From an uncultured Draconibacterium sp. (lineage in GTDB: Bacteria; Bacteroidota; Bacteroidia; Bacteroidales; Prolixibacteraceae), in the NCBI GenBank assembly GCA_963676455.1, contig OY781113.1, positions 571,136-635,135 of the forward strand: 64,000 bases of DNA. Reading direction: 5' to 3'. Positions 10,057 through 50,625 of the stretch are shown one piece after another. The position numbers and the translations under genes are program-made. The notes under the pieces are model-generated. The model made no database searches, was not told where the DNA came from, and worked only from the letters and a program-made list of their open reading frames with translations. Numbering within the stretch: position 1 is the stretch's first letter; the number at the start of each line of letters is the position of its first letter.

Positions 10057-10308
10057 GCATACCTCATTAATAGATAATATTTTTTAATTTCCGGGTAACA
10101 TTTGGGATATAGAATGCACCTATATATAAAACTGTGGCCCGTAAAGAAATCCATAACTGCAACTCTAGGGAGGCAAACGATTCAAAAGCAACCCATTCGT
10201 ATAGATGATGTTGTAAATAAAATGAATGCCCAATGTCAACAAAAGCAAGGATAGAAATTTGTTGCTCTTATTTTTGCTACACTTTGGAGTAACCAGAACA
10301 AATGTAAA

Positions 10309-11747
10309 TAGTCAAACCTTAAAAACACAATAGATTGTTGGTAATCAATTCATAACAATTTTTATTTGGTTTCTAAAAATGCAAGCAAATAGGTAAATTA
10401 GTGAAAAAGCTTGCAGATATGGTTGGGAAACAAGACAAAGCACCACAGTTGAGTATTTTTGACACACCTCTGAAGAGGTTCATTAATTTAGAACATGAAC
10501 TTTGTATTTTATCTCATCAAATAGATTGGGATTCAATTGAGGAAGAGTTTTCTGTTTATTATTCGGAAACGGGCCGTCCTTCAGTTCCTATCCGCAGGAT
10601 GGTTGGACTGCTATTGCTAAAGCACATCTATAATTTAAGTGACGAGGCCATGGTTGACAGGTGGATTGAAAACCCGTACTGGCAATACTTTAGCGGCGAG
10701 AAAGTTTTTCAAACCCAAAAGCCCTTCGACCCGACAGAATTTATACATTTTAGGAACCGGATAGGCAAAGAAGGTGCGGAAAAACTATTGAAAGTATCGA
10801 TACAACTATTTGGAAAAGAGGCTCAAGAAAAAGAGGTGTTGATTGACAGTACCGTGCAGGAGAAGAACATTACCTACCCGACCGATGCGAAACTGCATAA
10901 ACGTATTATCGGGAAAGTAAACAAGATAGCCAAACAGGAAGGGATAACATTGCGCCAAACTTATACAAGGACTTTAAAGCAGTTAATGATAGACCAGCGT
11001 TTTCACAGTCATCCCAGAAGGAAAAAGCAAGCCAAAGCAGCCATGCGCAAAATCAAAACCATAGCAGGCCGCCAGGTCAGGGATATTGAAAGAAAGTTTA
11101 CACCTGTACAGCAACAAAAATATAAGGAGTTGTTCATCATTCTCAATAAGATTTTACTTCAGGAAAAGACAGATAAAAATAAGATTTACAGCATTCACGA
11201 ACCAGAGGTTAGTTGTATTGCGAAGGGAAAAGAAGCCAAGAAGTTTGAGTTTGGGAATAAATCGGGGATTGTATTAACTAAAACCACTAAGATTGTAGTG
11301 GGTGCTATTGCTTTTGAAGGCAACCCCTACGATGGTCATACACTTGAAGAACATTTTACCCAAACAGAATATTTAACAGAAAGCAAACCAAAAACAGGAA
11401 TTGTTGATAGGGGCTATAAAGGGAAAAAGAAAATTAATGGAACAGAAATCATATCACCATCGGTCCCTAAAAATGAAACCACACAATACCAAAAACAGAA
11501 AGCAAGGAAACAATTTAGGGCAAGGGCAGGAATAGAACCAGTGATTAGTCATATCAAATACGATCACAGAATGTTAAGAAATTATTTGAAAGGTGTAATT
11601 GGTGACCAATTAAATACAATATTGGCCGGAACAGGTTACAACCTGAAGAAAATGCTCAATAGAATTAAAGAGCAAATTCTTTTTGACCTTATTCAAATCT
11701 TAAGTCTTGGGAAATTGCTTTTTTTCAAAGATAAGGTTCCAAAAAAT
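10309..11747 (+). mobile_element. IS5-family element, copy 1 (right terminal IR missing)
   Basis: Begins TAGTCAAACCTTAAAAA and matches the reverse complement of 33766-35204 (three upstream differences seen by eye). It diverges after ...GGTTCCAAAAAAT (11747) and lacks the final 24 bp present in copy 2. Confidence 0.9.
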
Positions 11748-11774
11748 TTAAGTCTTTCTATGTTAGATGTATAA
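10401..11774 (+). CDS. IS5-family DDE transposase (likely start ATG 10419)
   Basis: GRPSVPIRRM, LSDE..WIENPYWQYF, IDSTVQEK, KGK..K.EFG, DRGY and RAGIEPVISH motifs. The last ~9 codons read into flanking DNA. Confidence 0.95.
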   Translation: MKKLADMVGKQDKAPQLSIFDTPLKRFINLEHELCILSHQIDWDSIEEEFSVYYSETGRPSVPIRRMVGLLLLKHIYNLSDEAMVDRWIENPYWQYFSGEKVFQTQKPFDPTEFIHFRNRIGKEGAEKLLKVSIQLFGKEAQEKEVLIDSTVQEKNITYPTDAKLHKRIIGKVNKIAKQEGITLRQTYTRTLKQLMIDQRFHSHPRRKKQAKAAMRKIKTIAGRQVRDIERKFTPVQQQKYKELFIILNKILLQEKTDKNKIYSIHEPEVSCIAKGKEAKKFEFGNKSGIVLTKTTKIVVGAIAFEGNPYDGHTLEEHFTQTEYLTESKPKTGIVDRGYKGKKKINGTEIISPSVPKNETTQYQKQKARKQFRARAGIEPVISHIKYDHRMLRNYLKGVIGDQLNTILAGTGYNLKKMLNRIKEQILFDLIQILSLGKLLFFKDKVPKNLSLSMLDV

Positions 11775-26116: not shown

Positions 26117-28063
26117 GAGTAACTATTTTTGTAATTATTAAAAGGATAAATGAACACCTAAAGCAATGCTTCCTTGATTTCTTTTAATATTTCTTTGACC
26201 AGTACCATAATAGGTGTATTGAAATTCTGGATCGATGCCAGATTTATTAGCTTTCCATAGCATTAAATTTGATACTGATAATCTGAAAGTTAAACCATCT
26301 ATCTTAAGTTTATCTAACACATTTTTGGGAATTCCGTAAGACAATGTAATGTCTCTTAATTTAATATAGGAAGCGTTTAATACATTTGTATTTCCTTTCA
26401 TATAATAATAGGTATCTCTGGTATTTCCAGTAAAAGTTCCTGAAGGATCATAAGAAGGAATATCTGTAATCAATTCGTCACCCGGCTTCTTCCACCTGTT
26501 TACAAAATCACTATGAGGAACATCTTCTAAAAGTGATGAGTAATTTGAATTTACATCCTTTCTCATCACATGGCCTAAATTGTATACCGTATTTATACTT
26601 AAATTAAAGTCTTTATATCTAAAAGAATTAGAGAAACCACCACTCCAAATTGGTTGCGATGTTCCCATATATATAACATCTTCTGCCGAAGTAACATTTG
26701 GCTCTTTAGTTATTGTACCATCACTTAAACGGATTAAAGGATCTCCTTCACCATCCAACCCTTGGTAGTCGTAGGCAAAGATGGCAAAAGCTGGATAGCC
26801 TTTTAAGTATGCCAAATTCACTTTTTGAGCTCCTGTTGTTACATCACCCGGTAATAATAATTCAGTAATTTTGTTTTTATTGTAAGCCATGGTAAACAAA
26901 GTAGTCCAACCAAAATCTTCATTTTGAACATTAATTGTTTTCAATGTTAACTCAAAACCTTTATTTTCCATAGAACCAAAATTCCCAATAGCTGATGGAA
27001 ACCCTGAAAACACATTAAGCGGTAATTGGCCCAACAGATTATCTGTATTTTTCTTATATATATCTAAATAAGCTGTTATTACATTAAGCAATCCAAAATC
27101 AACACCAAGATTTAAAGTTTTGGTACTTTCCCATTTTAAATTTGGGTTACCAGGTGTTTGAATAGTTAATGGGATGATGTTTCCGGTTAAACTATAACCT
27201 GTTTGTGGCCTTAAAATATCATATGATGAAGATGTCCCTGGTGTAGGCGCGTTACCCGTAATACCATATGTTCCTCTTAATGTCAGAAAATTAAGGGGTG
27301 TGACATTTTCAAAAAATGTCTCTCTCCCGATGTTCCACTTACCACCAACACTCCATGTTGGCTTATTTTGTGCTGATTTATCTAATCCGAACAAATTACT
27401 CTTATCCCGTCTCCAACTTCCATTAATGGTATATTTCCTATTTAAGGTATAGCCTGCATTCATATAGTAAGAAGTAAATCGACTTAAAACTTCAGATCGA
27501 GTAAAGGAGTCATCTGGTAAAAAACTTTGGTTCCCAGCGTTTGGCATTACCGGGTTATCGATTCCATTATTTTTTAATGTAGCATAATCTACAGATAAAT
27601 AGGTCTGTAATAACGGATTATAACCACGAACTGTTGTATTTGTAATTTCGGTTAATTGTTCTTGTGCTTCTTGTCCTAATATTACATTAACTTGATGCTT
27701 ACTATCATCCCAACTTTTATCGAATGATAGTTGATTTCTTACGGTATAATTTCTATTAGAAATGTTGCTTTCACTGTATTTGCCTCCGGTTTCGGGTAGA
27801 TAATAAATAGGAGTGGCATCTGGTGAATCTGCAACGGTAAACTGGGCTAATTCACTTCGTACACTATAGCTTTCATCACTTGTGTAATTGGAAACCTTAT
27901 TAGAACCTTGAGTGTAGCTATAAGTACCATTAAACGTAATTCCCCACATAAGAACCTCCGAAATAGATTTAAACTAAAGTTATCTATTCCTCCAGCCCTG
28001 ATTAAATCCTTTTGCTAACGTAGAGGGGAGCCCTGATTAAAAGTCTTGCTATATTTGGAACAG

Positions 28064-28265
28064 GCTCTTTGTGTAACCGATTTTTAAAATGGTGCTTTTA
28101 AAGCCCGTGCGTAATTCTGGTTGAAATGTAAAAAGCCCCTGAAGAGCATTTCAAGGGCCTGTTGATAAATCCAGTGGTGGCACTGACGATTAATGCCAGC
28201 GACCCCGTTCAGAATATTTTTCGACTCAAAGATACATTTCCTTAGGGCTTTTTACTGATTAATTC
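28064..28265 (+). ncRNA. Putative IS110 bridge RNA (boundaries approximate)
   Basis: Lies in the left non-coding end downstream of a TATATTTG -7-like element (28050-28057). Contains stems (TTGAAATG/CATTTCAA, GCCC/GGGC) and matches to both junctions: CGTAATTC at 28110-28117 and TCAGAATATT at 28209-28218. Confidence 0.5.
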
Positions 28266-28272
28266 TAAAATT

Positions 28273-29652
28273 ATGGCAAGGAAAAAGAAAATTGAAATGG
28301 ACATCGTCAACCATTATGCAGCAGGAATCGATGTGGGGAGCAAGTCTCATTTTGTTGCAGTAGGGCAGGCCCTGGACGATGTAAAAGAATTTGGCGTATA
28401 TGCCGAGGATTTGATTGAACTATGCCAATGGTTGTTGTCATTCGGAATCACAACGGTAGCAATGGAATCGACAGGTGACTATTGGCAAAACCTCTATGTA
28501 GAATTGCAAAAACATGGCATTGAAGTAATCCTGTGCAATGGAAAATTTACAAAACATGCCAAAGGGAAAAAGACCGATGTAAAAGACAGTCGATGGATTC
28601 AGAAACTACATTCACTGGGATTATTATCTGGCAGCTTTTTGCCTGACAAAACCACTGAAATACTTCGCACTTATTGCCGTCAAAGGGCAAATTGGATCGA
28701 GCAGGCAGCAAGCGCATCTCATAAAATGCAGAAGTACTTAAAACTTCTGAACTTTCGATTGGATGTTGTCGTAAATGATGTGTGTGGACTTACAGGTCTG
28801 AACATTATCCAGGACATTTGCAATGGAAACCTCGACCCATTTTTATTAGCAGAACACAGACATTACAATTGCAGGAAACCAAAACAGGAAATAGCAAAAG
28901 CACTACATGGAAACAACCGCGAGGATTACCTGTTTGGCCTCAGACAAGAGTTCGACAGCTACAGGTTTTTCCAAAGAAAAATGAAAGCATGCGACAAAGA
29001 AATTGAGCGGCTAATCAAAAATGAAATAAAAAAGTCACCCGAAAAGAAAAAACTTAAAACCACTGAAAAACCATACAAGAAAATCAACAAAAATGCCGTT
29101 GACATTAAGAATTTTAACCAAATTGCTTTCCAGTACTTTGGGGGAACCGACTTAATGGCTGTTGAAGGAGTAAGCCATGCTACGGTTATGGCAATAATGA
29201 GCGAAATAGGAATCGATGGTTTTAAAAAGTTTAAATCCGCAAAACAGTTTTGCTCCTGGTTACGACTGGCCCCAAACAATAAAATATCAGGAGGGAGAAT
29301 CCTGAGCAACAAAATCCCAAAAGGAAGCAACCGACTAAAAATAGCATTACGTCATTCTGCAAATGCAATTGGAAATTTAAAAGATACACACCTGTCTGAC
29401 TTTTTTCGCAGAATAGCTTTCAGAAAAGGAAGACAGTCGGCAGTTTCTGCCACCGCCAGAAAACTGGCAACAATTATCTGGACAATGATTGTGAAAAATG
29501 TACCCTATAATCCTCCCTCCCAATACCTGTTCCTCGACCAAAAAAGAAAGATGGGAATAGCAAAAAGAATTAAAAAACAAATCGCTAAATTTGACATAAA
29601 ACCCAATGAAATTGGACTTGGTAACTCATTGAGCCCCAACTACAATTTTTAA
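28273..29652 (+). CDS. IS110-family DEDD recombinase/transposase
   Basis: GIDVGSK (D), AMESTG (E), KTDVKD (DD) RuvC-like domain; C-terminal Tnp20 domain with RLAPNNKISGG catalytic-Ser motif. Confidence 0.95.
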   Translation: MARKKKIEMDIVNHYAAGIDVGSKSHFVAVGQALDDVKEFGVYAEDLIELCQWLLSFGITTVAMESTGDYWQNLYVELQKHGIEVILCNGKFTKHAKGKKTDVKDSRWIQKLHSLGLLSGSFLPDKTTEILRTYCRQRANWIEQAASASHKMQKYLKLLNFRLDVVVNDVCGLTGLNIIQDICNGNLDPFLLAEHRHYNCRKPKQEIAKALHGNNREDYLFGLRQEFDSYRFFQRKMKACDKEIERLIKNEIKKSPEKKKLKTTEKPYKKINKNAVDIKNFNQIAFQYFGGTDLMAVEGVSHATVMAIMSEIGIDGFKKFKSAKQFCSWLRLAPNNKISGGRILSNKIPKGSNRLKIALRHSANAIGNLKDTHLSDFFRRIAFRKGRQSAVSATARKLATIIWTMIVKNVPYNPPSQYLFLDQKRKMGIAKRIKKQIAKFDIKPNEIGLGNSLSPNYNF

Positions 29653-31511
29653 CGTTAGTCAGAATATTATCAAAAACATCAATAATCACCCCTCCAATTA
29701 AACGAGTGTTAAAAGCTTCTGAAGTTTCATCTGAAAAATTTCTTTCATCTAAAGGGTTATAATTCAAATCAATTCTGGATCTTGCTTCAAAATCTGCCCT
29801 AACATCTTCTGTTAGCATCCCCATAAAAGGAATTGAAATATTGTTACCATTATCGTCTCTAAATAATTGATATGGAAAAAAGCTATTGGTAATACTTAAA
29901 TTATTCTTAGTAAGGGATTTTGTTTTTGTGAAATCGGTAATCAAGAAAGACCTAATTTTGTTATTAAATTTAAAATCTTGTCTTACATTTAATTTATAAA
30001 GTTCATCAGTATCCCCAGGTCTATCTGATTTTGTATCAGTATATGCCATAGATGCGTAAGCTGAATGCTTTTCACCACCAAATGAAAGTGATAAAGTATG
30101 ATTTGTTTGCATGGCTTTCCGATACCATAATTTCTTAATTTGATCTCTATTATTGATATTCGATAAACTATCCAGCCTGGCATTTGCAACATTACTAGAT
30201 ATAACACCTCGATATTCGTCATAAAGCGTTTGTAAATGTGGAGGGGTACCGCTAGCGTCAAAAAAATAAGCGTTTAATTCATTATAAGAGTTAGATTCCG
30301 GATCAAAAACTTCTTTTGCTGCATTAATCAATTCTGAGCTATTCAGATATGGTTGATAATCCAAATCTGGACGACCTTGAATATTAGTAAAAGCATCATA
30401 CTCAATCTTCAATTCACTATTGTTTTCAGCCTTTTTTGTGGTGATTACAATAACACCATTTGCTGCTCTAGCCCCCCAGATAGATGAAGCAGTTGCATCC
30501 TTTAAAACCGTAACATCCTCTATATCTTGTGGATTTATATAAGAAATGTTATTGTTTGGAATCCCATCTACAACGAATAAAGGATTTCTATTTGTACCTG
30601 TACCTGTAGCTATATTATCGTCTGAATTAAATGTCCCAATACTTGTTAAACCTCTAATTAAATAAGGATTAGAAGCTGCATCCGGAGAATTATTAATAGT
30701 CAATCCAGCAACCAATCCATCTAGTTTTTGAACTATATTCATTGAGAAGTTTCTTTCTTTAGCTATTGTTAGATCTGGCTTAGAAAAAGACCCGGAACTA
30801 CGCTCTTTTGAGAGCTTTTGGTAACCAGTTGAAACGATCTCAACAGCTTCAAGTTCTGTAACATCTTCTTCTAATATAACATCTATATTTGTTTTATCAC
30901 CTACTAAAACTTCTTTAAACTTAAACCCCAAAGACTTGAAAACAAGTATATTTTCACGCGATGGAACTGTTATTTTATAATTCCCGTCATAATCTGATAT
31001 AACGCCTGTCGTAGTTCCCTTAATAAATATAACTGCACTACCAATAGGTAGCCCATTTGCATCTGTTACCTTTCCAGAAACTTGAATTTTTTGTTGAGTG
31101 TTTCTACTTTTAACTATAATTTTATTATCTGTTGATATTACAGTATAAAAATCATTTGAAGAAAGACTGCTTTTCAAAAGCTCATCTACGCTAATTGTAC
31201 CTTTTTGTAATTGTACTTTTGGTGCATCCTTAAATAAATCTTGCGGATAAATAAAACGGTAATCCGTTTGTGTCTTGATAATATCAAAAACATCTTCAAC
31301 CGTTACTTCTTTATCGGTATCAATTTTAACCTTGTTTTGAGCGAAACTGTTTTCAGGTTTCAACGAAAAAGCCGTTGTGCAGAATAAAATAATAAAGGTT
31401 TTAATAATCAATAATCGCAACCGTTTTTGCATGAGATAACGGCCTGTGCTAAATTTAATTTCCATAAATTTGCTTTGTTTTTATTAGACAATTGTTTGAT
31501 AAATACTATCT

Positions 31512-33741: not shown

Positions 33742-35204
33742 TAGTTAAACCTTAAAAAGTCTACTATTTTTTGGAACCTTATCTTTGAAAAAAAGCAATT
33801 TCCCAAGACTTAAGATTTGAATAAGGTCAAAAAGAATTTGCTCTTTAATTCTATTGAGCATTTTCTTCAGGTTGTAACCTGTTCCGGCCAATATTGTATT
33901 TAATTGGTCACCAATTACACCTTTCAAATAATTTCTTAACATTCTGTGATCGTATTTGATATGACTAATCACTGGTTCTATTCCTGCCCTTGCCCTAAAT
34001 TGTTTCCTTGCTTTCTGTTTTTGGTATTGTGTGGTTTCATTTTTAGGGACCGATGGTGATATGATTTCTGTTCCATTAATTTTCTTTTTCCCTTTATAGC
34101 CCCTATCAACAATTCCTGTTTTTGGTTTGCTTTCTGTTAAATATTCTGTTTGGGTAAAATGTTCTTCAAGTGTATGACCATCGTAGGGGTTGCCTTCAAA
34201 AGCAATAGCACCCACTACAATCTTAGTGGTTTTAGTTAATACAATCCCCGATTTATTCCCAAACTCAAACTTCTTGGCTTCTTTTCCCTTCGCAATACAA
34301 CTAACCTCTGGTTCGTGAATGCTGTAAATCTTATTTTTATCTGTCTTTTCCTGAAGTAAAATCTTATTGAGAATGATGAACAACTCCTTATATTTTTGTT
34401 GCTGTACAGGTGTAAACTTTCTTTCAATATCCCTGACCTGGCGGCCTGCTATGGTTTTGATTTTGCGCATGGCTGCTTTGGCTTGCTTTTTCCTTCTGGG
34501 ATGACTGTGAAAACGCTGGTCTATCATTAACTGCTTTAAAGTCCTTGTATAAGTTTGGCGCAATGTTATCCCTTCCTGTTTGGCTATCTTGTTTACTTTC
34601 CCGATAATACGTTTATGCAGTTTCGCATCGGTCGGGTAGGTAATGTTCTTCTCCTGCACGGTACTGTCAATCAACACCTCTTTTTCTTGAGCCTCTTTTC
34701 CAAATAGTTGTATCGATACTTTCAATAGTTTTTCCGCACCTTCTTTGCCTATCCGGTTCCTAAAATGTATAAATTCTGTCGGGTCGAAGGGCTTTTGGGT
34801 TTGAAAAACTTTCTCGCCGCTAAAGTATTGCCAGTACGGGTTTTCAATCCACCTGTCAACCATGGCCTCGTCACTTAAATTATAGATGTGCTTTAGCAAT
34901 AGCAGTCCAACCATCCTGCGGATAGGAACTGAAGGACGGCCCGTTTCCGAATAATAAACAGAAAACTCTTCCTCAATTGAATCCCAATCTATTTGATGAG
35001 ATAAAATACAAAGTTCATGTTCTAAATTAATGAACCTCTTCAGAGGTGTGTCAAAAATACTCAACTGTGGTGCTTTGTCTTGTTTCCCAACCATATCTGC
35101 AAGCTTTTTCACTAATTTACCTATTTGCTTGCATTTTTAGAAACCAAATAAAAATTGTTATGAATTGATTATCAGCAACCTATTGTGTTTTTAAGGTTTG
35201 ACTA
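33742..35204 (-). mobile_element. IS5-family element, copy 2 (complete, 1463 bp)
   Basis: 17-bp terminal IRs TAGT(T/C)AAACCTTAAAAA at 33742-33758 and 35188-35204 (one mismatch). The terminal TA may be a target duplication. Confidence 0.92.
33745..35112 (-). CDS. IS5-family DDE transposase
   Basis: Protein identical to 10401-11774 except for the last residues; the stop codon lies in the right IR. Confidence 0.95.
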   Translation of the reverse strand: MKKLADMVGKQDKAPQLSIFDTPLKRFINLEHELCILSHQIDWDSIEEEFSVYYSETGRPSVPIRRMVGLLLLKHIYNLSDEAMVDRWIENPYWQYFSGEKVFQTQKPFDPTEFIHFRNRIGKEGAEKLLKVSIQLFGKEAQEKEVLIDSTVQEKNITYPTDAKLHKRIIGKVNKIAKQEGITLRQTYTRTLKQLMIDQRFHSHPRRKKQAKAAMRKIKTIAGRQVRDIERKFTPVQQQKYKELFIILNKILLQEKTDKNKIYSIHEPEVSCIAKGKEAKKFEFGNKSGIVLTKTTKIVVGAIAFEGNPYDGHTLEEHFTQTEYLTESKPKTGIVDRGYKGKKKINGTEIISPSVPKNETTQYQKQKARKQFRARAGIEPVISHIKYDHRMLRNYLKGVIGDQLNTILAGTGYNLKKMLNRIKEQILFDLIQILSLGKLLFFKDKVPKNSRLFKV

Positions 35205-35825
35205 ATTAGATTTTATTTAAGAAAACTACTGAACCTAATATTATAGGCTTTACATACCTTTTCAAAGGTAGTCATCCTCTTTTAAAGAAACTTAGGCATT
35301 GCCCCAGACAAATGCTGTCATATCGAGAACAAATGGTACAATTAAAATTATCAATGAATCAAGGGGGGAGCTACATATTAATGAGATGTCTCAAAAAAAT
35401 GTTACCATAAATGAAAATAGGAATATGAAAATAAATTGTAACCCTTAAAAGATAATATTGACCAAGTGAACCTAAGTAGCTCAATTCTGAACTTTTTACT
35501 AGAAAATAATGATACTGTGATGAAATTTATGAATACTGATCAGGAGAATAAAACACTAAAATTGTAATGAAGAAACACCGTTAGAAATTTACTTCCTTAC
35601 ACAAAGTAGTCACAAATAACAACTTATAGGAATTAGTATTCTTTAAACGATATAGCCACTAGTAAATAAGATAAAAAAGTCTTATATTACATATGTGATT
35701 GAATTTTGGTTTCAGTTGTTTGTAAATTACACTAATTAGCACGAACTTTTATCTCTCATTTGCAGCTACTAGTGGTGATTGAGATTGTGTTAAATAAAAA
35801 ACAATATTCGTAAATTTCCTCTTTC

Positions 35826-42369: not shown

Positions 42370-45300
42370 ATGAACATAAATATTTTACATCATTTCAAAC
42401 ACATTATCCTGACCTCTATTGTGCTTACAACTACGGTTTATATAGCTGTAGCACAAACCTATATTATAGGTGAAACAACTGGAACTGTAACAACCGACAA
42501 TGGTTATTTTTATGATTCTGGTGGCGAAACCGGTCTGTACATTAATAGTGAACACGATACACTAACATTTATACCTGCCACCGAAGGCTATTTTATAAGT
42601 TGCGAGTTTCTCTCGTTTGATGTTGAAGAGGGTTGTGACTACCTGTACATTTATGACGGAACAACTACCGATGCTACTCTAATTGGTAGCTATACCGGCA
42701 CTGACATCTCAACCATTGGAGATAATGGTATTGTAACAGCAGCACATGCCAACGGAGCCTTAACATTTGTGTTTTCTTCTGATGGTGGCGTAGTTGAAGA
42801 TGGCTGGAAAGCAGAAATTTCTATCACAACGCGCGAAGGCATATCAGCCTTTTTTTCAGCTGATGCAAGCAGCTCGTCAACATTTCCTTTTACTGTTAAT
42901 TTTACGGATGAGTCAATTGCTTATACCGGAGATGTAAGCTCCTGGGCATGGGATTTTGATGGTGATGGAATAACCGATAATACCGAACAAAATCCAAGTT
43001 ATACTTATACCGCTCCGGGATTTTATTCAGTAACCCTTATTGCCGGAAATGGAACCACATACGATACACTAACCGTAGATAATTACATACGTTGTGGAAT
43101 TTTTATAATGGGTGATGCTACCGGAACGATAACCACCGATGGCGGTTATTTTTATGATTCAGGAGGCAAAGACGGACAGTATAATCTTATGGAAAACTAT
43201 ACGCTAACGTTCATGCCCGAAACGCAAGGTAACTTTATAAGCTGCCAGTTTCTCTCACTTGATGTTTACAGCACCGACCTTTTATATATCTATGATGGAA
43301 CAGGTACCGATGCCACTCTAATAGGCAGTTATAGCGGTTCTGATATCGCAGCCATTGGAGATGGTGGTGTTGTAACTGCAACCAATGCCGATGGGGCTTT
43401 AACGTTTAAATTTTCTTCATCGTGGTGGGCTACTGCAGATGGCTGGGAAGCTAAAATAACTACAACCACACCTACCGAAGGTTTGTCGGCTAATTTTTCT
43501 GCCAATGCAACCAGTTCATCACTGCCCTTTACTGTTAATTTTACGGATGAGTCGGTTGCCTATAGTGGAGAAATAAATTCCTGGGCATGGGACTTCGATG
43601 GCGATGGAATAACCGATAATACCGAACAAAATCCAAGTTATACCTATTCAACTCAGGGTATCTATTCCGTAACACTTATTGCCGGAAATGGTACCACCTT
43701 AGATACGCTGACAAAAGAAGATTTCATAACTGCCGGAGAAGTCTTCCTAATGGGAAGTACAACAGGTACGGTTACCACCGAAGGCGGTTATTTTTATGAT
43801 TCAGGGGGCAATGACGGGCAATACAGTAATAATGAAGACTACACCATTACATTCATGCCGGCAACAGCAATAAAAACAGTAAGTTGTCAGTTTCTGTCCT
43901 TTAATGTTGAAAACAGTTACGACTATCTGGAAATTTATGATGGAACAACTACCGATGCAACGCTTATAGGGAGTTTTGATGGTTCTGATGCCTCAGCGAT
44001 TGGTGATAATGGGGTGATAACAGCAACAAATGTCAGCGGTGCTTTAACGTTTAAGTTTTATTCCGACAATAGTGGAACAATAGACGGTTGGGTAACAGAA
44101 ATAACAACCCAGTCCCGCGATGGTTTGTATACAACTTTTTCTGCCGATGCAACCAGTTCTAAAACACTACCATTTACCGTTAATTTTACGGACGAGTCGG
44201 TTGCTTTTAGCGGAGAGATAAACTCCTGGGCATGGGATTTTAATGGCGATGGAATAACCGATAACACCGAACAGAATCCTTCCTATACTTATACCGATGT
44301 TGGCACTTATTCTGTTACTCTTATTGCCGGAAACGGTACTACTCTGGATACACGAACAATGGAGGATTTCATAACAACAGGAGATACCTTTCTTATGGGA
44401 AGTACTACCGACACAGTAGTAACCTATGGCGGTTATTTTTATGATTCGGGTGGTGAAAACGAGCAGTATAGCAGTAAGGAAGATTATACAGTAACATTTA
44501 TTCCTGCCAATGAAGGCTATAATGTTATAAGTTGCGAAATCCTCTCTTTTGCCTCTGAACAAGATTATGACTATCTGGAAATATATGATGGAACAAGCAC
44601 CGACGCACCTAGTTTAGGATATGCTTCCGGTACCGATGCTTCAGGCATAGGGGGCAATGGCATAGCAACAGCAACAAACACAGAAGGAGCTTTAACGGTT
44701 AGGTTTATTTCTGATGATTGGAATCAGGCGGATGGTTGGAAGGCAAAGATTACTGTGCTGCCGCATGAAGGCTTAGCAGCAGATTTCTCTGCCGGTACAA
44801 GAGGCTCGTCAATTTTACCGTTTACGGTTGATTTTACAGACAAGACCATTGCTTATTCCGGAGAAGTAAACTCCTGGGCATGGGATTTCGATGGCGACGG
44901 AACAATCGATGACACCGAACAAAATCCAAGCTTTACTTACACTACGGCAGGGCTTTATCCGGTAACTCTTGTCGCCGGAAATGGAACAACATACGATACA
45001 CTAACCGTACAAAATTACGTTTTGGCAGGACTAACCGATTATATTATGGGAAATTCGCCCGACACCGTGATAACCGACGGCGGTTATTTTTATGATTCGG
45101 GCGGTGACAATGATACCTATATTAATAATGAAGATTACACGCTTACATTTTTGCCTGCAACAGACGGTGAATATATCAGCTGTCAGTTTTTATCATTTCT
45201 GGTTGAAAGCTCTTATGACTATCTTGATATTTATAATGGAACAAGCACTGATGCAACTCTTATAGGACATTTCGAAGGCACAGATGTATCAGCTATTGGA

Positions 45301-48300
45301 AGTAACGGAGTAGTAACAGCAACCAATGCCGATGGTGCATTAACGTTTAAATTTTATTCAGATGGAGGAGGATATGATGATGGATGGAAAGCGAAGATAA
45401 GCACAAAGACAGGTGTTTCAGCAGCTTTTGTAACAAATGAAAATAGCACACTGGAACTTTCTCTTACTGTTAATTTTACTGATGAATCGGTGGCTCTTTC
45501 CGGAGAAATAAATTCATGGGAATGGGATTTTGATGGCGATGGAATAACAGATAATACCGAACAAAACCCGACATATACTTATTCCACCGCAGGCATCTAT
45601 TCTGTAACTCTAATAGCCGGAAATGGAACCACAAAGGATACACTGACCATGGAAGATTACATTTCGGTTGGGCAGACAGATTATATTATGGGGAGTACAC
45701 CGGATACTATAATAACCGATGAAGGTTATTTTTACGATTCTGGTGGCGAAGATGGTGAGTATCGGAATAATGAAGACTACACGCTCACATTTATGCCTGC
45801 AACAGAGGGGACAGCTTTAAGTTTCCAATTTCTCTCGTTTGAGCTTTACGATGGCGCCGACTATTTGGAGATTTACGACGGAACATCTACCAATGCCACA
45901 TTGATAGGAAAGTTTATCTATATTGATGTCGCCTCAAGCATTGGAAGTGAAGGGAAAGTAACAGCAACAAATGTCAGTGGTGCATTAACTTTTAAATTCC
46001 ATTCCGGTGAGAGTTTTACAAAAAGTGGCTGGAAAGCTGAAATTACAGCTATAGGTGTATCTTCAGCTTTTACGATTGACAAAAACTGCTCATTAACGTT
46101 ACCATTTACGGTTAACTTTACCGATGAGTCAGTTGCTTATGTCGGAGAGATAAACTCTTGGAAATGGGATTTCAATGGGGATGGAATAACTGATGCCACC
46201 GAACAAAACCCAAGCTACACCTATACTGCAAACGGAGCTTATTCGGTAACACTTATAACCGGTAATGGTGCCGTATTCGACACAATAACAATGGATGATT
46301 ACATTACAATTGGGCATGCTATAATGGGAAACACACAAGACACCGTTATGGTAGATAACGGTTATTTTTATGATTCAGGAGGTGAAGATGGTGAGTATAG
46401 AAATGATGAAGACTATACGGTCACGTTTATGCCTACAACTGAAGGTAAAGCAGTAAGTTGTGAGTTTCTGTCTTTTGCTGTTGAATTCTTTTGTGATTAT
46501 CTACAGATTTATGACGGGGCAAGCACCGATGCTCCACTAATAGGTCAATATGACGAAGAATCAGCTGATATTGGAACCAACTGGAAAGTAATAGCAACAA
46601 ATGCCAGCGGCGCTTTAACTTTCCGTTTCTATTCCGATTTTACAGATTCAAGAAGTGGATGGAAAGCAAAGATGACTACGGTTGATGTATCGGCAGAATT
46701 TTCCGTAGATAAACACAGCTCGTTAACAGTACCATTTACAGTTAATTTTACGGATTTATCGACAGCATTTACCGATCCTATAAACTCCTGGGAATGGGAT
46801 TTTGATGGCGACGGAATAATCGATAATACAGAGCAAAACCCAAGCTATACCTATACTACCAAAGGTGTGTATCCGATAACGCTTATTGTCGGAAATGGTA
46901 GTGAGCAGGATACGCTTACAAAGGAAAATTTCATTGCTCCGGGTGGCTATATCCTGCAAGATGATGATGTAGTGGTAGAGAATAATGTCATCATTTCCTG
47001 CTCTTACGATTTTCTTATCACCGATATTATTATCCCTGATACGCTTGATGGACAGGCAGTGTTTGGTACAGCTGATGGCAGCTCTCTTATTAACGGGGTT
47101 TTTTATAATAAGGATATCACTTCCATTAACCTGCCCGCTACTATTGATACTATCGGATTCAATTCATTTTGCACCAATGATATTACTACACTTGACTTAA
47201 GTAAATGCTCTAAGTTGACATATATAGATGACTATGCATTCTATGGAAACTCGCTTACTTCAGTTGATTTGAGTGGTTGTTCATCCCTGAATTATATTGG
47301 TAGTGGAATCTTTAATGACAATTCTTTAACTTCTTTTACTCTACCTGCAAATGAGATATACGACTATTATTATTGGAAAGATGGTGTAGGAAATAATTAT
47401 GTAGCCGGCGATGAAGTCAGCAATCTTAATACCAATTATTATGTGGTTGGATACTATTTTATAAAGTTTATTGACTGGAATAGTACAGAGTTGAAAGTTG
47501 ATACTTTACTTTTCGGTGGTAATGCCGTTCCTCCTGCAGACCCAGTCCGTGAGGGATACGATTTCACAGGTTGGGACACAACTTATACCAATATCACTGA
47601 AGGTTATAATGTAACGGCTCAATATGAAATCAACACCTACACAATAACATTCAAAGATTGGGACAATTCGGTGTTAAAAAGAGATAATGTAGAATACGGT
47701 AGCGATGCAACAGCACCAACCGACCCGGTTCGAGAAGGCTACACTTTTACCGGTTGGGATACTACGTTTACAAACATTACCGAGAGTTATGATGTAACGG
47801 CCCAATATGAAATCAACACCTACACAATAACATTCAAGGATTGGGACAATTCGGTGTTAAAAACAGATAATGTAGAATACGGTAGCGATGCAACAGCACC
47901 AGACGACCCGGTACGGGTGGGTTACACTTTTACCGGTTGGGACACTACGTTTACAAACATCACCGAAAGCTACGATGTAACGGCCCAATATGAAATCAAC
48001 ACCTACACAATAACTTTTAAAGACTGGGATGACACTGTTCTTAAATTAGAAACAGTAGAATACGGTAGCGATGCAACAGCACCAACCGACCCGGTTCGAG
48101 AAGGCTACACTTTTAGCGGTTGGGACACTACATTTACAAACATCACAGAAAGCTACGATGTAACTGCCCAATATGAAATCAACACCTACACAATAACATT
48201 CAAGGATTGGGACAATTCGGTGTTAAAAACAGATAATGTAGAATACGGTAGCGATGCAACAGTGCCAGACGACCCGGTACGGGTGGGTTACACTTTTACC

Positions 48301-50625
48301 GGTTGGGACACTACGTTTACAAACATCACCGAAAGCTACGATGTAACGGCCCAATATGAAATCAACACCTACACAATAACTTTTAAAGACTGGGATGACA
48401 CTGTTCTTAAATTAGAAACAGTAGAATACGGTAGCGATGCAACAGCACCAACCGACCCGGTTCGAGAAGGCTACACTTTTAGCGGTTGGGACACTACATT
48501 TACAAACATCACAGAAAGCTACGATGTAACCGCCGAATATGAAATTAATACCTACACAATAACTTTTAAAGACTGGGATGACACTGTTCTTAAATTAGAA
48601 ACAGTAGAATACGGTAGCGATGCAACAGTGCCAGACGACCCGGTACGGGTGGGTTACACTTTTACCGGTTGGGACACTACGTTTACAAACATCACCGAAA
48701 GCTACGATGTAACGGCCCAATATGAAATCAACACCTACACAATAACTTTTAAAGACTGGGATGACACTGTTCTTAAATTAGAAACAGTAGAATACGGTAG
48801 CGATGCAACAGCACCAACCGACCCGGTTCGAGAAGGCTACACTTTTAGCGGTTGGGACACTACATTTACAAACATCACCGAAAGCTACGATGTAACCGCC
48901 GAATATGAAATTAATACCTACACAATAACTTTTAAAGACTGGGATGACACTGTTCTTAAATTAGAAACAGTAGAATACGGTAGCGATGCAACAGCACCAA
49001 CCGACCCGGTTCGAGAAGGCTACACTTTTACTGGTTGGGATACTACGTTTACCAACATCACCGAAAGCTACTATGTAACAGCCGAATATGAAATCAATAC
49101 CTACACAATAACATTCAAAGATTGGGATAATTCGGTGTTAAAAAGAGATAATGTAGAATACGGTAGCGATGCAACAGCACCAACCGACCCGGTTCGAAAA
49201 GGCTACACTTTTAGCGGTTGGGACACTACATTTACAAACATCACCGAAAGCTACGATGTAACCGCCGAATATGAAATCAACACCTACACAATAACATTCA
49301 AGGATTGGGACAATTCGGTGTTAAAAACAGATAATGTAGAATACGGTAGCGATGCAACAGCACCAACCGACCCGGTTCGAGAAGGCTACACTTTTACTGG
49401 TTGGGATACTACGTTTACCAACATCACCAAAAGCTACGATATAACTGCCGAATATGAAATTAATACCTACACAATAACATTCAAAGATTGGGACAATTCG
49501 GTGTTAAAAAGAGATAATGTAGAATACGGTAGCGATGCAACAGCACCAACCGACCCGGTTCGAGAAGGCTACACTTTTACCGGTTGGGATACTACGTTTA
49601 CAAACATCACCGAAAGCTACGATGTAACCGCCGAATATGAAATTAATTACACTATAACTTTTAAAGACTGGGATGACACTGTTCTTAAATTAGAAACAGT
49701 AGAATACGGTAGTGATGCAACAGCGCCAGACGACCCAGTCCGTGAGGGTTACACTTTTACCGGTTGGGACACTACGTTTACCAACATTACCGAGAGTTAT
49801 GATGTAACGGCCCAATATGAAATCAATACCTACACAATAACATTCAAAGATTGGGACAATTCGGTGTTAAAAAGAGATAATGTAGAATACGGTAGCGATG
49901 CAACAGCACCAACCGACCCGGTTCGAGAAGGCTACACTTTTACCGGTTGGGATACTACGTTTACAAACATCACCGAAAGCTACGATGTAACCGCCGAATA
50001 TGAAATTAATACCTACACTATAACTTTTAAAGACTGGGATGACACTGTTCTTAAATTAGAAACAGTAGAATACGGTAGCGATGCAACAGCACCAACCGAC
50101 CCGGTTCGAGAAGGCTACACTTTTACCGGTTGGGATACTACGTTTACCAACATTACTGAAAGCTACGATGTAACTGCCGAATATGAAATCAATACCTATA
50201 CAATAACTTTTAAAGACTGGGATGACACTGTTCTTAAATTAGAAACAGTAGAATACGGTAGCGATGCAACAGCACCAACCGACCCGGTTCGAGAAGGCTA
50301 CACTTTTACTGGTTGGGATACTACGTTTACAAACATCACAGAAAGCTACGATGTAACGGCTGAATATGAAATTATAAGTAGTGTGACAGAAACGATAAAT
50401 ACAGTGTTTGAGGTTTATCCTAATCCAACCAACGGAATGTTGTATGTATCAGGTAAAGTAGGTTGGCAAATACAGGTCTTTAGCCTTTCCGGTCAGTTCT
50501 TACAATATTTAATTATGAATAATGAGAAGCTTCAGTTGGATTTGTCAGAATATCCTGAAGGCATGTATTTGTTAAAAGCAGGCAATGAATCTGAACAAGT
50601 TATAAAAAAAGTGATTCGGAGATGA
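42370..50625 (+). CDS. Giant T9SS-secreted adhesin: 7x(CUB-PKD), short BspA-type LRR, 16x InlB-B/Flg_new-type repeats, T9SS CTD
   Basis: Seven GYFYDSGG..DYL.IYDG (CUB) units, each followed by VNFTD.S..W.WDF.GDG (PKD); FYGNSLTSVDL LRR; 61-aa repeats TYTITFKDWD..PVREGYTFTGW; C-terminal VYPNPTNG..GMYLLKA. Confidence 0.9.
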   Translation: MNINILHHFKHIILTSIVLTTTVYIAVAQTYIIGETTGTVTTDNGYFYDSGGETGLYINSEHDTLTFIPATEGYFISCEFLSFDVEEGCDYLYIYDGTTTDATLIGSYTGTDISTIGDNGIVTAAHANGALTFVFSSDGGVVEDGWKAEISITTREGISAFFSADASSSSTFPFTVNFTDESIAYTGDVSSWAWDFDGDGITDNTEQNPSYTYTAPGFYSVTLIAGNGTTYDTLTVDNYIRCGIFIMGDATGTITTDGGYFYDSGGKDGQYNLMENYTLTFMPETQGNFISCQFLSLDVYSTDLLYIYDGTGTDATLIGSYSGSDIAAIGDGGVVTATNADGALTFKFSSSWWATADGWEAKITTTTPTEGLSANFSANATSSSLPFTVNFTDESVAYSGEINSWAWDFDGDGITDNTEQNPSYTYSTQGIYSVTLIAGNGTTLDTLTKEDFITAGEVFLMGSTTGTVTTEGGYFYDSGGNDGQYSNNEDYTITFMPATAIKTVSCQFLSFNVENSYDYLEIYDGTTTDATLIGSFDGSDASAIGDNGVITATNVSGALTFKFYSDNSGTIDGWVTEITTQSRDGLYTTFSADATSSKTLPFTVNFTDESVAFSGEINSWAWDFNGDGITDNTEQNPSYTYTDVGTYSVTLIAGNGTTLDTRTMEDFITTGDTFLMGSTTDTVVTYGGYFYDSGGENEQYSSKEDYTVTFIPANEGYNVISCEILSFASEQDYDYLEIYDGTSTDAPSLGYASGTDASGIGGNGIATATNTEGALTVRFISDDWNQADGWKAKITVLPHEGLAADFSAGTRGSSILPFTVDFTDKTIAYSGEVNSWAWDFDGDGTIDDTEQNPSFTYTTAGLYPVTLVAGNGTTYDTLTVQNYVLAGLTDYIMGNSPDTVITDGGYFYDSGGDNDTYINNEDYTLTFLPATDGEYISCQFLSFLVESSYDYLDIYNGTSTDATLIGHFEGTDVSAIGSNGVVTATNADGALTFKFYSDGGGYDDGWKAKISTKTGVSAAFVTNENSTLELSLTVNFTDESVALSGEINSWEWDFDGDGITDNTEQNPTYTYSTAGIYSVTLIAGNGTTKDTLTMEDYISVGQTDYIMGSTPDTIITDEGYFYDSGGEDGEYRNNEDYTLTFMPATEGTALSFQFLSFELYDGADYLEIYDGTSTNATLIGKFIYIDVASSIGSEGKVTATNVSGALTFKFHSGESFTKSGWKAEITAIGVSSAFTIDKNCSLTLPFTVNFTDESVAYVGEINSWKWDFNGDGITDATEQNPSYTYTANGAYSVTLITGNGAVFDTITMDDYITIGHAIMGNTQDTVMVDNGYFYDSGGEDGEYRNDEDYTVTFMPTTEGKAVSCEFLSFAVEFFCDYLQIYDGASTDAPLIGQYDEESADIGTNWKVIATNASGALTFRFYSDFTDSRSGWKAKMTTVDVSAEFSVDKHSSLTVPFTVNFTDLSTAFTDPINSWEWDFDGDGIIDNTEQNPSYTYTTKGVYPITLIVGNGSEQDTLTKENFIAPGGYILQDDDVVVENNVIISCSYDFLITDIIIPDTLDGQAVFGTADGSSLINGVFYNKDITSINLPATIDTIGFNSFCTNDITTLDLSKCSKLTYIDDYAFYGNSLTSVDLSGCSSLNYIGSGIFNDNSLTSFTLPANEIYDYYYWKDGVGNNYVAGDEVSNLNTNYYVVGYYFIKFIDWNSTELKVDTLLFGGNAVPPADPVREGYDFTGWDTTYTNITEGYNVTAQYEINTYTITFKDWDNSVLKRDNVEYGSDATAPTDPVREGYTFTGWDTTFTNITESYDVTAQYEINTYTITFKDWDNSVLKTDNVEYGSDATAPDDPVRVGYTFTGWDTTFTNITESYDVTAQYEINTYTITFKDWDDTVLKLETVEYGSDATAPTDPVREGYTFSGWDTTFTNITESYDVTAQYEINTYTITFKDWDNSVLKTDNVEYGSDATVPDDPVRVGYTFTGWDTTFTNITESYDVTAQYEINTYTITFKDWDDTVLKLETVEYGSDATAPTDPVREGYTFSGWDTTFTNITESYDVTAEYEINTYTITFKDWDDTVLKLETVEYGSDATVPDDPVRVGYTFTGWDTTFTNITESYDVTAQYEINTYTITFKDWDDTVLKLETVEYGSDATAPTDPVREGYTFSGWDTTFTNITESYDVTAEYEINTYTITFKDWDDTVLKLETVEYGSDATAPTDPVREGYTFTGWDTTFTNITESYYVTAEYEINTYTITFKDWDNSVLKRDNVEYGSDATAPTDPVRKGYTFSGWDTTFTNITESYDVTAEYEINTYTITFKDWDNSVLKTDNVEYGSDATAPTDPVREGYTFTGWDTTFTNITKSYDITAEYEINTYTITFKDWDNSVLKRDNVEYGSDATAPTDPVREGYTFTGWDTTFTNITESYDVTAEYEINYTITFKDWDDTVLKLETVEYGSDATAPDDPVREGYTFTGWDTTFTNITESYDVTAQYEINTYTITFKDWDNSVLKRDNVEYGSDATAPTDPVREGYTFTGWDTTFTNITESYDVTAEYEINTYTITFKDWDDTVLKLETVEYGSDATAPTDPVREGYTFTGWDTTFTNITESYDVTAEYEINTYTITFKDWDDTVLKLETVEYGSDATAPTDPVREGYTFTGWDTTFTNITESYDVTAEYEIISSVTETINTVFEVYPNPTNGMLYVSGKVGWQIQVFSLSGQFLQYLIMNNEKLQLDLSEYPEGMYLLKAGNESEQVIKKVIRR
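47450..50376 (+). repeat. Sixteen tandem 183-bp coding repeats
   Basis: Unit period confirmed, e.g. CAACACCTAC at 47631 and 47814. One unit has a 3-bp deletion near 49647. Confidence 0.92.

Follow-up and report, generated by a model that had tools for sequence, protein, structure and literature searches.

A putative left-end bridge RNA with a variant loop layout in an IS110-family element of Bacteroidota

We analysed a 64,000-nt stretch of DNA from an uncultured Draconibacterium sp. (contig OY781113.1, positions 571,136–635,135, forward strand; hereafter the window, in whose numbering all coordinates are given). Positions 27941–29665 hold an insertion sequence of the IS110 family, and its left end very probably encodes a structured bridge RNA of about 190 nt that belongs to the element's own DEDD/serine recombinase. 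Three segments of this predicted RNA covary with DNA at the insertion junctions: a left target guide (LTG) with the host flank, a left donor guide (LDG) with the right end of the element, and a two-nucleotide extension of the LTG with the two bases that open the element. A bridge RNA is already implied by the family annotation; what is new is an undescribed lineage with a variant loop layout.

The element measures 1,725 bp including one core copy, lies on the + strand, starts with TCCCCACATAAG and finishes with AACGTTAGTCAGA followed by AT. Its ends are defined by an empty site: contigs of four public runs from related organisms (X7, X25, X28 and X33) join position 27937 to 29663; the joint lacks 1,725 nt and is ambiguous over three bases (AAT). 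In the window, insertion of the element has split a minus-strand gene for a SusC-type TonB-dependent receptor in a polysaccharide-utilisation-like locus. The same gene is uninterrupted in the four runs, and the restored sequence AAACGTAATATTATC translates in frame as VFDNITFNGTYSY. Seven copies inside assembly OY781043 have identical element ends, and loose ends in multi-copy genomes fall at 27936–27939 and 29664–29669. The junctions that had been assumed in an initial annotation of this region were thus correct. In one sequenced related organism, the element reached a depth of 1,155 compared with 53–96 for flanking contigs, and depth gives an estimate of approximately 12–20 copies in one related genome. 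Present in multiple copies, and with filled and empty sites coexisting in related strains, the element is evidently active.

A single core dinucleotide, AT, is common to the LTG, the LDG and both junctions, where its left copy occupies 27939–27940 and its right copy 29664–29665; insertion occurs without further target duplication. The five bases left of the core, ACGTA (27934–27938, + strand), constitute the left target, and the flank at the empty-site joint, ATTATCAAA (29666–29674, + strand), the right target. Within the element, the left end is 332 nt long and begins with TC (27941–27942, + strand), the two bases that the LTG extension would read. The right end extends 11 nt past the stop codon (CGTTAGTCAGA, 29653–29663, + strand), and its last five bases (29659–29663) are the left donor. 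In one subgroup, the L060 group (L-numbers denote related loci carrying relatives of the element), the core is TT, or UU in the RNA. Some right junctions read AG or AC, which led us to consider AA or AAT as the core; no dinucleotide other than AT, with UU as its L060-group equivalent, keeps its register in the two guides across both subgroups. G or C replaces the second core base of the right junction at about 10 of 106 sites (L001, L002, L022, L020, L047, L050 and others), where the left junction retains AT. This pattern suggests that the right junction takes the core of the target and the left junction that of the donor.

The initial annotation had singled out two segments of the left non-coding end as guides of a putative bridge RNA, by analogy with the bispecific RNAs of IS621-type elements. 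The first, CGTAATTC at 28110–28117, does repeat the left junction (27935–27942, + strand), and the second, TCAGAATATT at 28209–28218, the right junction (29659–29668). The 10-mer occurs nowhere else in the window (0.28 expected), and the 8-mer is found three times compared with 2.24 expected. When the 323-nt left end was shuffled 20,000 times with its dinucleotide content preserved, 0.3% of the shuffled sequences contained the 8-mer, 0.04% the 10-mer, and 0.005% both the 8-mer and TCAGAAT.

To follow these segments through evolution, we used 159 related loci, 79 from species-representative genomes and 80 from metagenomes, whose recombinases are 57–92% identical to the 459-aa protein of the window. 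They come mostly from Bacteroidota (Marinilabiliales, Chitinophagales, Cytophagales and Flavobacteriales); one of them, L006, with a recombinase 92% identical, belongs to the cultured Mariniphaga sediminis SY21. Flanks in multi-copy genomes are merged into a consensus rather than being individual flanks. Some short contigs with the element sit in metagenome-assembled genomes labelled Woesearchaeota, Desulfobacteraceae, Pseudomonadota, Patescibacteria or Nitriliruptoria (L012, L014, L016, L019, L024 and L043), labels that are most likely binning errors.

Among these relatives, both segments covary with target and donor, which identifies them as the LTG and the LDG. The LTG, GCGUA followed by the core AU (28109–28115, + strand), comes after hairpin C of the predicted RNA and corresponds in sense to the top strand that precedes the insertion point. 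It showed 2.97 matches to the left flank over five nucleotides, compared with 1.83 when guides were permuted, a value reached in none of 10,000 permutations (159 loci; 99 events and 39 guide classes); an earlier set of 79 loci had given 3 of 5,000. Agreement at positions −1 to −4 was 0.80, 0.58, 0.70 and 0.48, with null values of 0.51, 0.33, 0.31 and 0.29. Variant guides illustrate the relationship: GGCGCAU accompanies the flank GGCGCAT (L016), GCGUCAU the flank GCGTCAT (L079), GGCCAAU the flank GGCCAAT (L082) and AAGGUUU the flank AAGGTTT (sixteen copies of the L060 group). In the window itself, the left target matches GCGUA at four of five bases.

The LTG is followed by UC (28116–28117, + strand), which equals the first two bases of the left end. 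When distinct RNAs were compared with their own elements, the pairing of extension and element start was UC with TC in 82, CC with CC in four (L130, L131, L140/141 and L058) and UU with TT in one (L092), and a further four had single mismatches. Left junctions were parsed with a preference for canonical starts of the left end, and the result was alike when this constraint was lifted. Since UC covaries with the first two element bases, all eight matching bases of CGTAATTC are guide positions. We propose that the extension is a handshake-like guide, which would read the right arm of the donor, that is, the left end of the element.

The LDG, UCAGA followed by AU (28209–28215, + strand), comes after hairpin D and has the sense of the last five right-end bases plus the core. 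It mirrors seven right-end classes without exception: TCAGA, TCATA, TCAAG, TCATG, TCACA, TCTCA and, with a TT core, TCAGT. The AUU that ends the 10-mer (28216–28218, + strand) reads AAU or AUU in relatives irrespective of the right flank and is unmatched in the L060 group; it is not a guide, and its match here is due to chance. The initial annotation had remarked that both matches run past the core: at the first, these two nucleotides belong to the guide, and at the second, the three nucleotides ATT do not. Covariation with the flank on the one hand and the element end on the other also bears out its placing of a target loop before a donor loop, and of an IS110-family bispecific bridge RNA in the left end.

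The guides sit in a conserved fold. An alignment of 43 distinct left ends over about 230 nt gave an RNAalifold consensus of 35 pairs in six helices, which places the predicted RNA on the + strand from outer helix A to a U-run (28063–28253), its ends being inferred. In this consensus, 96.7% of alignment cells are paired compared with 86.3% after shuffling, none of 500 shuffles reached the observed values on all five measures, and controls with slid partners paired at most 48% of cells. Compensatory, two-sided changes affect 19 of the 35 pairs. Helix A (28063–28068 with 28244–28249, followed by the U-run at 28250–28253) has two-sided changes at five of six pairs. Helix B (28075–28079 with 28118–28122), which would close the target-binding loop, is 99.1% paired and has one-sided changes only (G-U to A-U or G-C): it is conserved, without compensatory proof, and its G-U pairs are compatible with the + strand only. 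Inside this loop, hairpin C (28089–28108) has compensatory changes at four of six pairs. Helix E, in which GAAAUGU (28123–28129) pairs with ACAUUUC (28234–28240), would close a donor-binding multiloop; it is 99.7% paired, with compensatory A-U to G-C changes at two of seven pairs (L060, L077 and others). The donor loop contains hairpin D (28176–28206), which has such changes at six of nine pairs. All of these helices are formed by + strand sequence, as is an optional hairpin H1, GCCCCUGAA...UUCAAGGGC (28135–28158), which the alignment shows to be absent from L058 and L060.

The stem system described in the initial annotation proved largely wrong. The stem TTGAAATG/CATTTCAA is not conserved, being absent from close relatives such as L001, and is replaced by helix E with its compensatory changes. 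The GCCC/GGGC pairing that was thought to enclose the first guide belongs to the optional hairpin H1, downstream of that guide. Read on the minus strand (28133–28160), H1 has the form of an intrinsic terminator, with 11 pairs in its stem and TTTTAC after it, and could halt transcripts that run into the element from its downstream side.

A Bacteroidota-type −7 promoter box, TATATTTG, which the annotation had noted, lies inside the left end at 28050–28057 (+ strand), 5 nt upstream of the first conserved helix. It is kept as TAnnTT(T)G in relatives, and TA..TT is invariant or nearly so in the 43 aligned left ends; it is inferred to act as a promoter. Upstream of the box, AGCCCTGATTAAA occurs twice, 36 nt apart (27994–28006 and 28030–28042), and is present as a single copy in close relatives. 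A scan of 27800–29900 against Rfam returned nothing better than E = 2.6.

The counterparts of the two left guides are less distinct, in line with the caveat in the initial annotation that clear right-hand guides were missing: a candidate right target guide is weakly supported, and a right donor guide was not found. The candidate, segment X, is AUUUUUAAA followed by AU (28080–28090, + strand) on the 5′ side of the target loop, with the reverse complement AT|TTTAAAAAT. Right flanks of copies with the same RNA mostly read T-T-G/A-A-A-A-A. Across 53 segment X classes and 106 sites, there were 4.15 matches between segment X and the right flank compared with 3.81 on permutation (2 of 3,000). The right flank in the window, ATTATCAAA, matches the prediction at five of nine positions, and several other segment X variants fit their sites well, for example in L053 and L034. 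In the donor loop, segment Y, CUGUUGAUAAAUCCAGU (28159–28175, + strand), occupies the 5′ side, where a right donor guide reading the left end of the element would be expected, and contains a conserved UUGAUAA. Among the relatives, we found no segment that was both complementary to the donor's left end and covarying with it, and column-by-column scans for right-hand guides yielded only weak or geometrically impossible signals. Two further candidates were considered. UUGAUAA (28162–28168), the reverse complement of the flank TTATCAA, was rejected as a right target guide: the 7-mer occurs at chance frequency, and it is invariant in relatives with differing right flanks. GUGGUGG (28174–28180) may yet be a right donor guide, as it permits wobble pairing with TCNNCAC, but it is invariant, lies within the stem of hairpin D and fits the TCCACAC group worse.

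The recombinase gene (28273–29652, + strand, 459 aa) is assigned to the IS110 family by Pfam and NCBIfam matches and by its invariant residues. The protein matches DEDD_Tnp_IS110 (PF01548, E = 1.8e-20) and Transposase_20 (PF02371, E = 2.9e-11), and scores 205.5 bits against NF033542, 'IS110 family RNA-guided transposase', for which the cut-off is 140. Eight relatives all keep the catalytic residues D20, E65, D102 and D105, together with P334 and S339-G340 of the P....SG motif. The protein is far from the bridge recombinases of solved structure: searched as a single sequence against the Protein Data Bank (PDB), it gave no match, and a profile search reached only the ISCro4 transposase 9t56 (E = 8.6e-4).

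Taken together, these features point to the following mechanism. The element's own promoter box would drive transcription of the ~190-nt RNA from the + strand, and the outer helix of this RNA would enclose two loops in series. The target loop, closed by helix B, would present from 5′ to 3′ the A/U-rich segment at 28080–28090 as candidate right target guide, hairpin C, the LTG GCGUA+AU and then UC. The donor loop, closed by helix E, would present the conserved segment at 28159–28175, hairpin D and the LDG UCAGA+AU. Bound by the DEDD/serine recombinase of the element, the RNA would act as its bridge RNA, with strand exchange by the recombinase taking place at the core. The product in which left target, core and left end are joined would be stabilised by the UC extension, a handshake on the bottom strand.

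We weighed three other explanations. It is unlikely, to begin with, that the functional RNA is a shorter, processed species of the seekRNA type, comprising the target loop (about 28075–28122) or two separate halves, with helix A being incidental. SeekRNAs of 58–96 nt are abundant and sufficient in ISEc21 and in IS1111 members (PMC11187229), and in the synaptic complex of IS621 the loops come from different RNA molecules (PMC11208158). Here, however, helices A and E tie the loops into one fold, and their compensatory changes at five of six and two of seven pairs argue for selection on the full length; a processed form would in any case be a variant of the bridge RNA explanation and not a contradiction of it. 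We regard it as quite improbable that the conserved structure is only the 5′ leader of the transposase mRNA, acting in translation or stability, with the junction-like motifs being subterminal repeats of the DNA. The structure does end about 20 nt before the start codon, and the inverted CGTTAG/CTAACG pair described below makes some recognition at the DNA level likely. Yet the first motif covaries with host flank outside the element, as a protein-binding repeat within it would not, both motifs are single-stranded in a structure kept by compensatory changes, and RNA guidance is established for this protein family (NF033542; PMC11208160). That the two matches arose by coincidence in an A/T-rich left end has next to no probability: the 8-mer is not rare window-wide, but the joint chance in the left end is ~5e-5, and the matches persist and change with the junctions in more than 100 related copies, a covariation that refutes coincidence.

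Several observations nevertheless weigh against a guide-bearing bridge RNA in the left end. Natural sites match the LTG imperfectly, at about three of five bases on average, and the CC/CC and UU/TT changes of the extension amount to perhaps two or three independent events. The related sequences are not independent of one another, so the permutation figures overstate significance. For segment X, the signal is small, the per-position excess weak, and the register differs from one subgroup to another. A right donor guide was not found; segment Y is without left-end complementarity or clean covariation. Targets conserve the CGTT motif described below more strongly than the bases under guidance, and the guides have no obvious reading of it. 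Left ends of 17 loci gave nothing at the gathering score in Rfam, which offers no curated family by which to score the RNA. We found no RNA-seq run of a host; one metatranscriptome has only low-depth contigs over 27936–28182, which also include the flank.

Compared with known systems, the predicted layout would combine the RNA position of the IS110 type with the guide order of the IS1111 type, both left guides lying 3′ of their loop hairpin and the donor loop being a multiloop. With IS621 and ISCro4 (IS622) (PMC11208160, PMC11208158, PMC13626964), the element shares a DEDD RuvC-like domain and a Tnp domain with a catalytic serine, an RNA encoded in a long left end upstream of the gene, and a target loop followed by a donor loop, each of which would here too consist of a stem, a guide, a hairpin and a second guide. 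Also shared are left guides of top-strand sense that include a two-nucleotide core common to target and donor, a two-nucleotide extension on the 3′-side guide that reads partner DNA, and the lack of duplication beyond the core. The proteins, by contrast, are very distant, with 459 aa here and approximately 326–341 aa in IS621 and ISCro4. In IS621, the loop order is left guide, hairpin and right guide, and each right-hand guide is succeeded by a handshake guide for the left arm of the partner (PMC11208158). Here the hairpin precedes the left guide, and it is the LTG, instead of the right target and right donor guides, that carries the handshake-like dinucleotide at its 3′ end. The left guides have 5+2 nt here compared with 7+2 or 6+2 nt, CT is replaced as core by AT, or by TT in one subgroup, and the donor multiloop has an extra, optional hairpin. 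An internal Bacteroidota-type −7 box would replace the promoter that in IS621 is rebuilt across the joined ends.

In the IS1111 group (ISEc11, ISPa11 and ISKpn4), seekRNAs are encoded downstream of the gene, and their bottom-strand match lies 3′ of the top-strand match (PMC11187229). The order of top-strand then bottom-strand match is the same here, with weak support for the partner match, and further likenesses are an inverted motif in both ends (CGTTAG/CTAACG) and donor bases in a multiloop, which Durrant et al. describe for many IS1111 members. The differences are that IS1111 elements have a short left end and encode the RNA beyond the gene, in a long right end, compared with a right end of 11 nt and a left end of 332 nt here, and that the protein has 330–350 aa instead of 459. 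With the subterminal inverted repeats of IS1111 elements (7–17 bp, close to both ends), the agreement is partial: ACGTTAG ends 6 nt from the right terminus, whereas its inverted copy, CTAACG(T), is not subterminal, being 74 nt inside the left end in the window, 36–42 nt inside in relatives, and 36–74 nt inside overall. ISEc21 resembles our element in having its seekRNA in a non-coding region upstream of the gene, RNA segments that match both strands of the target, and no target duplication. Its bottom-strand match is 5′ of the top-strand match (PMC11187229), in contrast to the bottom-strand guide on the 3′ side here. The 'new core/guide geometry' claimed in the initial annotation therefore survives in part: the AT core falls within what work on IS621 reports as tolerated (PMC11208158), and the reversed loop order is present but has been described for IS1111.

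A second sequence feature marks the target sites. The motif CGTTAG(C) is present in the right end, where ACGTTAG ends 6 nt from the terminus, and in most target sites; CGTT occupies −11 to −8 in about 90% of main-group left flanks, the same motif at the same distance as in the right end. An inverted copy, GCTAACG (28014–28020, + strand), lies upstream of the RNA, 74 nt inside the left end (36–42 nt in relatives with short left ends), and is conserved in nearly all relatives. The site in the window, which is inside a gene, has CATT at −11 to −8. We considered a bulged guide in which CCCG(U), 5′ of each left guide, would pair with CGTT; the idea is ruled out because CCCG(U) forms the 3′ strand of hairpin C and of hairpin D, where pairs change in a compensatory way, and because no covariation is seen at positions −6 and −7. 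In many different genomes, most natural sites adjoin a conserved repeat between genes, about 60–90 nt long (for example L001:2330–2410, L057:2300–2400 and L030) with the consensus ...GACAGG..CCGAAATCC.C.ACG...CATAC..ACCGTTRK, at whose 3′ end the element inserts. An Rfam search with this repeat gave no match, and folding reconstructed empty sites revealed no common target hairpin. By nature, then, the element seems to target a repeat or small RNA gene that is widespread and has no name.

In some relatives, right end, core and left end are joined in the chromosome, at L004:3870–3900, upstream of the left end in L037 and L065/L068, and downstream of the right end in L063, L064, L067 and L148. Such junctions are head-to-tail copies or insertions beside the left end of a related element. 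They have the form expected of an excised circle and suggest donor–donor recombination. One IS110 copy, in L053, contains a group II intron (L053:2038–2334; Rfam RF02001, 105 bits, and RF01998, 43 bits).

The interrupted receptor gene encodes CarbopepD_reg_2 and Plug domains in its N-terminal part and is adjoined by SusD, FecR and ECF-sigma genes. Two inverted copies of another insertion sequence, 1,461 nt long and 99% identical (10300–11760 and 33753–35213), bracket 22 kb that holds the IS110 element and this SusC/SusD/FecR/ECF-sigma locus. Their open reading frame (10401–11774) has the Pfam domains DUF772 and DDE_Tnp_1 and is IS5/IS1182-like. The 22-kb segment could invert or move as a unit. 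Further along, tandem repeats with a period of 642 nt (42462–46939, about seven copies) and of 183 nt (47455–50500, 16 copies of 61 codons each) probably lie in a very large, repetitive surface-protein gene.

Bridge recombinases are under development for programmable DNA insertion, inversion and excision, and their mechanism is known nearly all from IS621 and its close relatives. The lineage described here is distant from those relatives in sequence and abundant in marine and sediment Bacteroidota. It extends the IS1111 guide order to an RNA encoded in the left end and would provide an example from nature in which the other guide bears the handshake-like dinucleotide. As a tentative proposal that we would not yet favour, recombinases of this widespread ~460-aa Bacteroidota lineage may use a 'mirror-image' left-end bridge RNA, in which both bottom-strand guides are 3′, the handshake is made with the bottom strand at the left end of the donor, and transcription starts from the RNA's own constitutive promoter. 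Choice of a target would then also require a fixed CGTT, 6 nt upstream of the guided bases and common to donor and target, which the protein would read in the manner of a protospacer-adjacent motif. If true, the mirror-image RNA would imply that the strand exchanged first is opposite to that in IS621. An RNA with its own Bacteroidota promoter would also be useful if editing systems for Bacteroidota are wanted.

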